A stretch of DNA of 64,000 nucleotides from Candidatus Acidiferrales bacterium (lineage in GTDB: Bacteria; Acidobacteriota; Terriglobia; Acidiferrales; UBA7541), in NCBI GenBank assembly GCA_963722985.1, contig CAVROZ010000010.1, positions 14,341 to 78,340 on the forward strand. The letters are read 5' to 3'. The translations under genes were made by a program, and so were the position numbers. Below the pieces are notes generated by a model, which made no database searches, was not told the origin of the DNA, and worked only from the letters and a program-made list of their open reading frames with translations. Below are positions 54,521-57,296 of the stretch, in pieces (within the stretch, counting starts at the first letter, position 1; each line of letters opens with the position of its first letter).

Positions 54521-54719
54521 TCCGCTTTCCCCCTGTCTGATCCGGCTCTAGCACTCTCATATCACGTCTGCGTCGTGTCGATGGAGAGGTTTTTTGGTCG
54601 TTCTTGGTTCTACGGTAGAGGGAAATCCTGAGGCATGAAGATCTTGAGCTACGGCTTGACTTCCCACGACTGTGGTTACAGACTCTGCGGCACTAGCGCT
54701 AAACAGGAGAGTATCCTTC

Positions 54720-55130
54720 ATGCGAATTAACTACTTGGCTGTTTTCGTAGCTGCTATCGCTTACTGGATTCTTGGGGCGCTCTGGTATGGTGTGGCCTTC
54801 AGCAAGCCTTGGATGGCGCTCGAACACATGAGCGCCGAGCAGGCGCAAAGCATGAATCCGGTGCTTCCTTATATCATTACGTTCTTGCTCAATCTGGTGA
54901 TTGCGGCTGCCATCGGGTTGATTTGTGTTTGGCGCAACGCGAACACGTTTGGTCGGGGAGCGTCGGTCGGCGTCCTTCTTTGGATCGGAATTGTTGGCCC
55001 GGTGACCTTCACGACCTATATGTATGAAATGCGGCCGTGGCAGCTCTTCGCCATCAATGAGTTCTACCCATTGTTTGGATTCGTGTTGATGGGAGCCATC
55101 CTCGGCGCGTGGACGAAGAAGATTGCCTGA
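54720..55130 (+). CDS. DUF1761-like membrane protein
   Basis: INYLAVFVAA..GALWY..F.K.W; four TM segments; AGGAG RBS. Confidence 0.82.
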   Translation: MRINYLAVFVAAIAYWILGALWYGVAFSKPWMALEHMSAEQAQSMNPVLPYIITFLLNLVIAAAIGLICVWRNANTFGRGASVGVLLWIGIVGPVTFTTYMYEMRPWQLFAINEFYPLFGFVLMGAILGAWTKKIA

Positions 55131-55207: not shown

Positions 55208-55756
55208 ATGCACCCATGGCACGACGTTTCACCGGGGAAAGAACTGCCCCGTGATTTTCAGGCGCTGATCGAAATTCCGCTGGGCTCGAATGTCAAATAT
55301 GAGCTGGACAAAGCCAGCGGTTTGTTGAAAGTCGACCGCATCATTCATTCAGCCGTTTACTATCCTGCAAATTACGGTTTCATCCCGCAAACGTACGCAG
55401 AGGACAATGATCCTCTCGATGTGCTGGTGCTGTGCCAGGAGGCCGTTCAGCCGCTTGCTCTGATCAAGGCACGGGCGATTGGCGTCATGACCATGATCGA
55501 TTCGGGCGCGAGCGACGACAAAATCATCGCCGTTGCCACCAACGATCCCGAATATAGCGAATATATCGAAGCGCGCGACCTGCCTCCGCACCGGCTGCTG
55601 GTCGTGAAGCGTTTCTTTCAAGACTACAAACAGCTCGAAGGCAAGCAGGTTCAGGTCGAGGACATTCGTCCAGCCTATGCTGCCATCACGGTTATTGAGA
55701 AGGCTCTTTTGCGGTACAAGGCGCTGCGCGACGACCTCCGCGCCGCGCATATCTGA
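55208..55756 (+). CDS. ppa: Inorganic pyrophosphatase (family I)
   Basis: HPWHD, KYELDK, YPANYGF, DNDPLDV, DDKIIAV, FFQDYK. Confidence 0.96.
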
Positions 55757-55766
55757 TCCGAAACCT

Positions 55767-56471
55767 ATGCCGATCGCCCTCAAATGGACTCTGATTTCAC
55801 TGGGCTTGTCTCTGGTTGCCCTCTATGCACTGCTGAGCTGGATGGCGGGCGGACCGAAAGACGCGCTTTACATGATCCGGTACGCCTTGCCGCACATGAG
55901 TCGTGGCAAGCTGAAGGTGGGCGAGCAGGCGCCGGATGCGCGACTGGTGGCGCTCGATGGCTCGACGAGGTTCCATATTCGCGAAAGAACGGCTCGAAGG
56001 CCGCTGGTGCTGGTCTTCGGCAGCTTTACTTGACCACCCTTCCGTCGCCAGGTTGGTGACATCGAGCAACTCTACACTGACTACAAGGACCACGTTGATT
56101 TCTTGACGATTTACATCCGCGAAGCACATCCGACCGACGAGTGGATGATGAAGTCCAACGAAAAAGGGAAAGACAACGTTTGCTATAAGCAACCGAAGAC
56201 GATTGCAGATCGTGTAGCCATCGCGAACGATTTTACGCAGCGTTACAAATTCACTGTTCCGTTTGGCATCGATGAGATGTCCAATGCCGCGAATGACGCA
56301 TATGCGGCATGGCCGGAACGGCTATATGTGATTGACGAGAACGGGCAAATCTCCTACAAAGGCGGCAATGGGCCATTCAAGTACGATCCGAAGGAACTTC
56401 GCGCGTGGCTTGCGAAGCGCTACGGCGAAGTAAAGCACCCGATGCCCGCAACTACGGAGAAGAAAAGCTGA
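55767..56471 (+). CDS. Iodothyronine-deiodinase-like selenoprotein (UGA = Sec at codon 89; 234 aa), N-terminal TM anchor
   Basis: ORFs 55677-56033 and 56103-56471 are in one frame, separated only by TGA 56031-56033. Readthrough gives RPLVLVFGSFT-U-PPF..DFLTIYIREAHPTDEW..AYAAWPERLYVI..YKGGNGP..ELRAWL, which are DIO-family motifs. Confidence 0.88.
56044..56060 (+). promoter_or_regulatory. Bacterial SECIS hairpin
   Basis: GUCGCCA-GGU-UGGUGAC starts 10 nt after the UGA. A G-led apical loop 17 nt from the UGA resembles the E. coli fdhF SECIS (GCAGGUCUGC). Confidence 0.75.
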
Positions 56472-56477
56472 ACAGAT

Positions 56478-57296
56478 TTGGCTTTTGTTCGCAGTTATAG
56501 TCCATTCGATGCGGTTGTGAAAAAAAACAAAAACATTTCGCGAGGTCGCTCAAGCGCCAAACCCGTGGGAATGGCACGGGCGCTCTCAAAATTCGGCTAC
56601 TGTTCGCGGTCGCAGGCGGCCCGGCTCGTTCGCGAAGGACGCGTGCGTCTGAACGGCGCGGTGACGAAAAATCCGGAGGCTCCTGTTCGTCTTGCGAAGG
56701 ATCGTATCCATGTGGACGGGCAGTTCCTCGGAGCAGCAGAGAAGATCTATCTCGTGTTGAATAAGCCTCGCGGCATCGTCACTACCGCGTCCGATGAAAA
56801 AGGCCGCGACACGGTCTATTCCCTGTTGCCTTCGAACCCTCCGTGGATTTCGCCGGTCGGTCGACTGGATCAAGCCAGCGAGGGTTTGCTGCTCCTCACC
56901 AACGATTCCGAATGGGCCGCACGTATCACCGATCCTGCTTCGCGTCTCGACAAGCTATACCATGTTCAGATCGGCGCACTAGCCGATGACCAAATGTTGC
57001 GAGCTCTCGAACGCGGAATCGAGGTCTTGAAGGGCGAGATGCTCAAAGCGAAGCGCGCTACGATTCTGCGTTCCGGAGAAAACCATTGCTGGCTGGAAAT
57101 CATCCTCAATGAGGGGAAGAATCGACAAATTCGGCGGGCGCTCAAGGCGCTCGGAGTCGAGGTGCTAAGACTGATTCGGGTTTCGATAGGACCGGTGACC
57201 TTGGGTGAGCTGGCGAAAGGGGCTCATCGAGTTCTTCGCGCCGAAGAAAAGGCGGCGCTTGACAGCGTTTTGCGGCGGGTGCGCACGACTCTGTGA
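56478..57296 (+). CDS. rRNA pseudouridine synthase (RsuA/RluB family, S4 domain)
   Basis: CSRSQA S4 domain, LNKPRG, VGRLD (catalytic Asp), GLLLLTND, EGKNRQIRR. Start uncertain. Confidence 0.93.
   Translation: MAFVRSYSPFDAVVKKNKNISRGRSSAKPVGMARALSKFGYCSRSQAARLVREGRVRLNGAVTKNPEAPVRLAKDRIHVDGQFLGAAEKIYLVLNKPRGIVTTASDEKGRDTVYSLLPSNPPWISPVGRLDQASEGLLLLTNDSEWAARITDPASRLDKLYHVQIGALADDQMLRALERGIEVLKGEMLKAKRATILRSGENHCWLEIILNEGKNRQIRRALKALGVEVLRLIRVSIGPVTLGELAKGAHRVLRAEEKAALDSVLRRVRTTL

Follow-up and report, generated by a model that had tools for sequence, protein, structure and literature searches.

Within a 64,000-nucleotide (nt) stretch of Candidatus Acidiferrales DNA, hereafter the window, the forward-strand segment at 55767-56471 very probably encodes a deiodinase-family selenoprotein, in which an in-frame UGA at 56031-56033 would be translated as selenocysteine (Sec) at the catalytic position. 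We put the probability of this overall explanation at roughly 0.85, a figure that applies mainly to the existence of a Sec-decoded gene, while our proposals for the chemistry of its product are held far more tentatively. The original prediction, made from the sequence alone, had proposed that two open reading frames (ORFs) lie in a single frame and are split only by the TGA at 56031, and translation bore this out: frame 1 of the segment contains exactly two TGA codons, the internal one at residue 89 and the terminal one at 56469-56471, and it is at the former that an ORF listing under translation table 11 breaks the gene into 55677-56033 and 56103-56471. The read-through product of 234 residues contains RPLVLVFGSFT-U-PPF, DFLTIYIREAHPTDEW and AWPERLYVIDENGQISYKGGNGP, all of the quoted peptides being found, and homologs that were called at full length, for example P0002 (MHPILKW...), agree with its start codon. 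The motifs that had been named for vertebrate DIO3 (FGSCT[U->C]PPF, IYIEEAHPSDGW and ERLYVI..YQGGRG) are seen in the alignment to PDB 4tr3, the UGA does align with the catalytic Sec of Dio3 and Dio2 (Cys in the crystallised mutants), and the hairpin GUCGCCA-GGU-UGGUGAC is present where it had been placed after the UGA (Table 1).

The internal TGA is not an assembly error, since contigs from four independent sequencing runs (four samples, three studies) carry it with zero differences. A homolog is present in 36 of 61 related genomes, in all but one of them with one in-frame TGA; adding 64 further named loci to the 29 that have the codon in the same column of FGS[F/Y]T-U-PPF gives 93 Sec-form relatives in which the TGA is kept at the catalytic column, down to ~40% identity. 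Alignment of homologs, proposed earlier as a check, thus finds U or C at this position: the single congener without the TGA, locus L044, has TGC there, and 11 Cys-form metagenome proteins, one of which is the product of L044, have a continuous reading frame. Variation at the first, second and third codon positions is 0.22/0.17/0.54 upstream of the TGA and 0.11/0.09/0.48 downstream, in the same frame on both sides, and both halves of the gene are under purifying selection in that frame. TGA also terminates the upstream inorganic pyrophosphatase gene (ppa) as well as the selenoprotein gene itself, indicating that the genetic code is standard. The gene is present as a single PF00837 copy in a six-frame search of the genome (147.9 bits, with one TGA inside), and contigs 95–99% identical to it in two soil metatranscriptomes cross both the UGA and the hairpin with the codon unchanged, which is weak evidence of expression.

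A few of the related loci depart from this pattern. At L110 (CAWCTJ010000012.1) the gene is frameshifted and its middle translates out of frame, and two genomes each give two overlapping or adjacent matches separated by a frameshift (G003:C12:471873-472537 and G021:C10:60532-61201); the frameshifts stem either from indels in the assemblies or from real gene decay. The genome that carries L044 (G024), the only congener with a Cys form, has no selA match in a metagenome-assembled genome (MAG) that is 82% complete; this would fit a Sec-to-Cys replacement following loss of the Sec trait, although the genome is too incomplete to tell.

The 6.9-Mb genome encodes the full set of Sec components whose presence had been named as a check. 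selA (545 bits), selB (357 bits) and selD (341 bits) all score above curated cut-offs, and a tRNA-Sec with a UCA anticodon, called by ARAGORN and scoring 61.4 bits against Rfam RF01852 (threshold 47 bits), lies on the same contig as the gene. Among high-quality relatives, selA is present in 34 of 35. We propose that the UGA at 56031 is read as Sec by this SelA/SelB/SelD/tRNA-Sec system, and that the hairpin at 56044-60 would serve to recruit SelB. The genome has a second selenoprotein gene, located outside the window (locus L128, contig C8, ~2140597-2142333, minus strand), which encodes a molybdopterin formate dehydrogenase of the FdnG type with an in-frame TGA in ENQARV-U-HGPTV. Its hairpin, GGUCUCA-AGUU-UGGGACC, starts 14 nt after the UGA and is almost the same in position and loop geometry as that at 56044-56060.

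The claim of a bacterial selenocysteine insertion sequence (SECIS) directly downstream of the UGA is upheld by the position of the hairpin, the conservation of its pairing and its loss from the Cys form L044. Counting the U of the UGA as +1, the loop G and U are at +22 and +23, and this GU is present in every hairpin. Of all cells in the six proposed pairs across 80 unique sequences, 94.8% do pair, compared to 18–75% when the partners are slid. Synonymous change is suppressed on the stem, reflecting constraint at the nucleotide level: codon +5 is CGC in 29 of 29 sequences and codon +6 is CAG in 24 of 24, with other Arg and Gln columns varying freely, and codon +8 is limited to GGC or GGU, whose last letters are the two able to pair with the opposing G. 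One compensatory double change, from C-G to G-C, occurs in L062 and L073 at the cost of a Gly to Ala substitution. In L112, a distant Sec form from Planctomycetota, the hairpin is unrelated and its loop is GGUC.

A number of observations count against the hairpin as a SECIS element. Its 60-nt fold has a free energy of -11.3 kcal/mol compared to a shuffle mean of -11.85 (z = 0.2); as it is no more stable than shuffled sequences, we dropped energy as an argument and draw support from position and conservation. Covariation is limited to the one pair, in 2 of 80 sequences, and another stem pair (U-A) is broken in 24 of the 80. Scanning the gene region against Rfam (E <= 10) returned only a chance snoRNA match and no bacterial SECIS family. 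Finally, a subgroup of relatives with the His-containing peptide RRHVGDVV can fold alternative hairpins. In these loci (L029, L030, L032, L035, L045, L103 and L105) the changes Gln to His (CAG to CAC) and Ile to Val (AUC to GUG) create a perfect 7-bp hairpin, CCACGUC-GGY-GACGUGG, a few nt downstream, and the register of the SECIS may have moved in these relatives.

Assignment to the deiodinase family, as the original prediction had it, is agreed upon by Pfam, by sequence matches in the PDB and by the predicted fold. The T4_deiodinase profile PF00837 matches with E 3.3e-45 (154.7 bits against a 27-bit cut-off), and the best PDB sequence matches are mouse Dio3 (E 4e-31) and Dio2 (E 1.3e-27). An AlphaFold2 (AF2) model built from 32 sequences (pLDDT 86.6, pTM 0.79) was matched by Foldseek to Dio2 (9h48, template-modelling score 0.84) and Dio3 (4tr3, score 0.81, root-mean-square deviation 2.2 Å, 38% identity) with E ~1e-16. 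Generic ResA, TlpA and peroxiredoxin (Prx) folds rank next, at E ~1e-9 and 12–20% identity, seven orders of magnitude behind. The catalytic domain also aligns to the C-terminal half of NCBIfam NF038285, deiodinase_rel ('deiodinase family protein', a hypothetical equivalog), covering only positions 177-337 of the 347 in the profile, and the bacterial protein does not have the ~170-residue N-terminal region of that model. The score of 192.5 bits is under the 250-bit cut-off, and the Prokaryotic Genome Annotation Pipeline (PGAP) would therefore not name the protein by this model.

The protein is predicted to be anchored in the membrane by a single N-terminal helix, as had been claimed. Mean Kyte-Doolittle hydropathy is 1.98 over the 19 residues of the segment and 2.1–2.8 in 13 homologs, and the AF2 model places a helix at residues 3-27. 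The further suggestion that this helix mirrors the topology of animal deiodinases holds for the presence of an anchor but not for its direction; counts of positive charges around the helix in 14 proteins find both flanks positive, which favours neither orientation.

Comparison with vertebrate Dio1-3, with which identity is 34–38% and the fold, including the loop-D insertion, is shared, indicates which parts of the catalytic apparatus are kept (residue roles in Dio2 and Dio3 are from PMC11592359 and PMC12025243). The motif FGSxT-U-PPF is conserved. Sec89 corresponds to the nucleophile Sec170 of Dio3, and four residues of its proton relay are retained as Ser86 (Ser167), Thr88 (Thr169), Tyr116 (Tyr197) and Glu119 (Glu200, which also anchors loop-D). 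Likewise kept are His121 (His202, which binds or stacks on the substrate 4'-OH), Trp126 (Trp207, which stacks on His202) and Glu184 (Glu259, which lies near Arg275 and may recognise the substrate amino group). Among 131 family representatives the Glu at 119 is kept in 130 and the His at 121 in 128, and by alignment the Ser/Thr/Tyr/Glu/His/Trp core is a feature of the family. Other residues differ. The Arg275 carboxylate clamp is replaced by Asn201 (Asn or Met among relatives), the proton-relay His219 by Pro143 (Pro in 102 of the 131 representatives) and Asp211, which forms a halogen bond to 3'-I, by Ser130. Of the two candidate resolving cysteines of Dio3, Cys239 is Val164 and Cys168 is Phe87 (Phe or Tyr in relatives), the latter being the replacement of the Cys of SCT-U that had been pointed out earlier. 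Since residues of the His219 and Arg275 type are absent, iodothyronines are unlikely substrates, and the residue alignment describes a member of the family that is not an iodothyronine-type enzyme. The bacterial SECIS lies inside the coding sequence whereas that of Dio is in the 3'-UTR, and thyroid hormones are not expected in the bacterial habitat.

In place of the Dio cysteines, the candidate resolving residue is Cys139 on loop-D, which 91 of the 93 Sec forms share (the other two are truncated loci that could not be scored); in 85 of the 93 the soluble domain has no other Cys. None of the 12 Cys-form relatives examined has Cys at position 139, where they carry Val, Ile or Leu; the 12 include the 11 aligned proteins (one of them the L044 product). 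P0003, a Sec form translated with TGA as Trp, does have Cys there. In deeper clusters Cys139 is found in 3 of 7 hidden-Sec forms versus 3 of 112 Cys forms (Fisher p = 0.002). This co-occurrence with Sec suggests a Sec89-Cys139 redox pair, to which we give even odds; the selenenylsulfide step that it would involve can be likened to the resolving cysteines of atypical 2-Cys peroxiredoxins.

The reaction that we favour for this enzyme follows the deiodinase mechanism. Sec89, held in the Ser86/Thr88/Tyr116/Glu119/His121/Trp126 core, would act as nucleophile and take an electrophilic atom from the substrate, preferably a halogen (X+) from a halogenated phenolic compound, giving a selenenyl halide; Cys139 on the mobile loop-D would then resolve the oxidised selenium, forming a selenenylsulfide that a thiol reductant would reduce. 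Halogen abstraction is preferred because the only assayed members of the family are dehalogenases and because the Dio-specific core and loop-D are retained. By analogy with these enzymes a halogenated aromatic substrate is our tentative choice, at somewhat less than even odds. The more specific proposal, that the Acidoferrales enzymes are selenium-dependent reductive dehalogenases of natural halogenated (I/Br/Cl) phenolics in acidic organic soils working through a Sec89-Cys139 selenenylsulfide cycle on the mobile loop-D, would in its entirety be unlikely. Several points weigh against it: the neighbours of the gene are ppa and a pseudouridine synthase gene and none is related to dehalogenation, the His219 and Arg275 of thyronine enzymes are missing, and the association of Cys139 with Sec is partly phylogenetic. 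We found no assayed bacterial PF00837 enzyme in the searchable literature; one review of the gut microbiota speaks of 'bacterial deiodinase-like enzymes' but gives no primary data for them.

Rather than a dehalogenase, the same gene with the same Sec decoding may encode a membrane-bound peroxidase like the peroxiredoxins or glutathione peroxidase (GPx), or a thiol-disulfide oxidoreductase; lipid hydroperoxides are one example of what it might act on. In this chemistry Sec89 would be oxidised to a selenenic acid, Cys139 would resolve it and a thioredoxin-type partner would reduce the product. Such a role is almost equally likely as halogen abstraction. The Redoxin (36.6 bits) and AhpC-TSA (29.8 bits) profiles exceed their cut-offs, which speaks for a peroxidase and against a halogen substrate, but both overlap the far stronger Dio match. 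The ResA/TlpA/CcmG oxidoreductases and peroxiredoxins, whose N-terminal anchor (in the former) and thioredoxin fold resemble the bacterial protein and which provide its secondary fold and profile matches, are nevertheless surpassed by the true deiodinases by a wide margin in sequence and structure, including the Dio-specific loop-D insertion. The S-x-x-U of the selenoprotein resembles the T/S-x-x-C of peroxiredoxins, but the full PxxxT/SxxC motif is lacking, with no Pro at -7, and with no Cys at +3 there is neither CxxC nor UxxC. The original describers of bacterial family members favoured a redox role since thyroid hormones are unexpected in bacteria (PMC1088965), the housekeeping neighbourhood and the universal presence in the genus would suit a constitutive protective function, and the thyronine-specific His219 and Arg275 are absent; on the other hand, the invariant Glu/His/Trp core is specific to Dio and occurs in the selenoprotein but not in the generic oxidoreductases, and the only members ever assayed, the animal DIOs, remove halogens. 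By themselves, ppa and the pseudouridine synthase gene give no indication of function.

A genuine stop at the TGA would make the locus either a nonsense pseudogene or an 88-amino-acid (aa) membrane peptide followed by an independently initiated C-terminal fragment. Public annotation appears to agree, as gene callers give only C-terminal fragments of 129–165 aa for most relatives, and the hairpin is not exceptionally stable. However, the starts of these fragments are called inconsistently among relatives, and a fragment would have neither the catalytic residue nor strand beta1 and helix alpha1 of the fold; with the TGA kept at one column in 93 genomes, purifying selection on either side, continuous Cys forms and complete Sec machinery, we regard this explanation as very improbable. 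Least probable of all is that the UGA is read as Trp, Cys or Gly through code reassignment or near-cognate suppression, for although database entries P0002, P0003, P0013 and P0090 show W at the codon, TGA terminates genes here under the standard code, these W calls are caller artefacts, the codon lies at the catalytic Cys/Sec column with a SECIS-type hairpin after it in a genome with tRNA-Sec and selB, and Trp as nucleophile would be inactive. The same translation, FGSFT-W-PPF, also occurs in P0141, P0143, P0153, P0191, P0246, P0254 and P0264, and the metagenome contigs concerned were presumably annotated with a table in which TGA is Trp. Pseudogene, split gene and reassigned codon were thus each set aside as very unlikely, given the conserved TGA, the selection on both sides of it, the Sec machinery and the standard code.

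The Sec-decoded gene is part of a conserved gene order. ppa lies upstream in ~23 of 30 congener loci and the pseudouridine synthase gene lies downstream in most congeners. The start of the latter is probably ATG 56571, not the TTG at 56478 that opens the listed ORF, and the spacer between the selenoprotein stop and this ATG (56472-56570) is AT-rich (GAAAAAAAACAAAAACA at ~56519-56536). Co-transcription of the three genes is plausible from the 10-nt gap after ppa, the lack of a terminator and the conserved order; a promoter and terminator scan, which is uninformative on this point, found neither promoter-like sites nor a terminator between ppa, dio and rluB. Upstream of ppa is a gene for a DUF1761 membrane protein (window 54672-55130, plus strand), which is syntenic in the closer congeners (L019-L026, L046).

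The runs that contain the stretch are soil and sediment metagenomes, and nearly every named relative is a soil or peat MAG assigned to Candidatus Acidoferrales, Ca. Acidoferrum, Ca. Acidiferrum or another group of Acidobacteriota. The contigs of L066, L067, L073 and L104 bear other labels (Eremiobacteraceae, Limnocylindrales, Verrucomicrobiia and Dongiaceae); their homologs are 67–78% identical and share the SECIS sequence. Acidobacteriota contigs that were mis-binned or mislabelled are a more likely source of these than horizontal transfer.

Table 1. Features of the deiodinase-like locus and its flanking genes, in window coordinates
Feature	Coordinates	Strand	Basis and remarks
Deiodinase-like selenoprotein gene (probable), complete	55767..56471	+	234 aa plus stop codon; start ATG 55767; true stop TGA 56469-56471
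Predicted N-terminal transmembrane anchor, residues 9-27 (LISLGLSLVALYALLSWMA)	55791..55847	+	Hydropathy, AF2 helix
Catalytic deiodinase-type thioredoxin-fold domain, residues 48-218	55908..56420	+	Pfam match, Foldseek; holds Dio-specific loop-D insertion (~residues 121-145)
In-frame UGA, probable selenocysteine 89 in FGSFT-U-PPF	56031..56033	+	Alignment; equivalent to Sec170 of mouse Dio3
Bacterial SECIS-type hairpin GUCGCC(A)-(A)GGU(U)-(U)GGUGAC	56044..56060	+	Fold; 10-nt spacer after UGA
Codons for Glu119-Ala120-His121 (Dio3 Glu200, His202; invariant catalytic core)	56121..56129	+	Alignment to 4tr3
Cys139 (TGC) on loop-D, candidate resolving cysteine for Sec89	56181..56183	+	Only cysteine of soluble domain
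Inorganic pyrophosphatase (ppa), upstream	55208..55756	+	Pfam PF00719, E 7e-56; stop TGA 10 nt before selenoprotein start
RluB/RsuA-type pseudouridine synthase with S4 domain, downstream	56478..57296	+	Pfam PF00849 and PF01479

The Acidoferrales gene belongs to a family of 'deiodinase-like' bacterial selenoproteins that is already catalogued. Zhang, Fomenko and Gladyshev reported Sec- and Cys-containing members with bacterial SECIS elements from the Sargasso Sea in 2005 (PMC1088965); such proteins were counted again in the Global Ocean Sampling (GOS) data in 2008 (PMC2398784), and appear in the prokaryotic selenoprotein catalogues of 2022 and 2026 (PMC9312934, PMC13188914); at 50% identity and E <= 1e-10 the family comprises 1,525 clusters. 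Like those members, the bacterial protein described here matches PF00837, has Sec as its catalytic residue and has Cys homologs, and its SECIS hairpin directly follows the UGA with a G in a small apical loop. Unlike them, it is from a terrestrial clade in which the gene is near-universal in the genus, the described examples being marine metagenome reads, and it has a transmembrane anchor, a conserved ppa-dio-rluB order and a lone Cys139 that tracks Sec. Recent reviews give UxxC as the family motif (PMC9312934, PMC13188914), which the 2008 paper does not (PMC2398784), and in this protein and most of its close clusters the site reads U/C-P-P-F, with no second Cys at +3 in it or in the 150 closest. 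We considered UxxC as a further distinguishing difference and rejected it as an over-reading, because the 2008 GOS table has no motif and the 150 closest clusters all lack UxxC.

What is specific to the present case is therefore the terrestrial Acidoferrales clade, the near-universal presence in the genus with a fixed gene order, the transmembrane anchor, the association of Sec with Cys139 and the mis-annotation in public databases. Since most public calls of the gene are fragments or carry a spurious Trp, counts of selenoproteins fall short in Ca. Acidoferrum, a dominant soil lineage. Bacteria have no other counterpart of the thyroid-hormone deiodinases than this family, within which the Acidoferrales clade provides a compact target, a single-domain protein of 234 aa with natural Cys-form relatives and a candidate Sec-Cys pair. 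If its members do dehalogenate, selenium would be tied to the cycling of halogens in soil, with a bearing on the origin of thyroid-hormone metabolism. Needing neither cobalamin nor flavin, they would then add a third class to the bacterial reductive dehalogenases that act on aromatics, and theirs would be the ancestral activity from which the thyroid-hormone deiodinases of animals were recruited.

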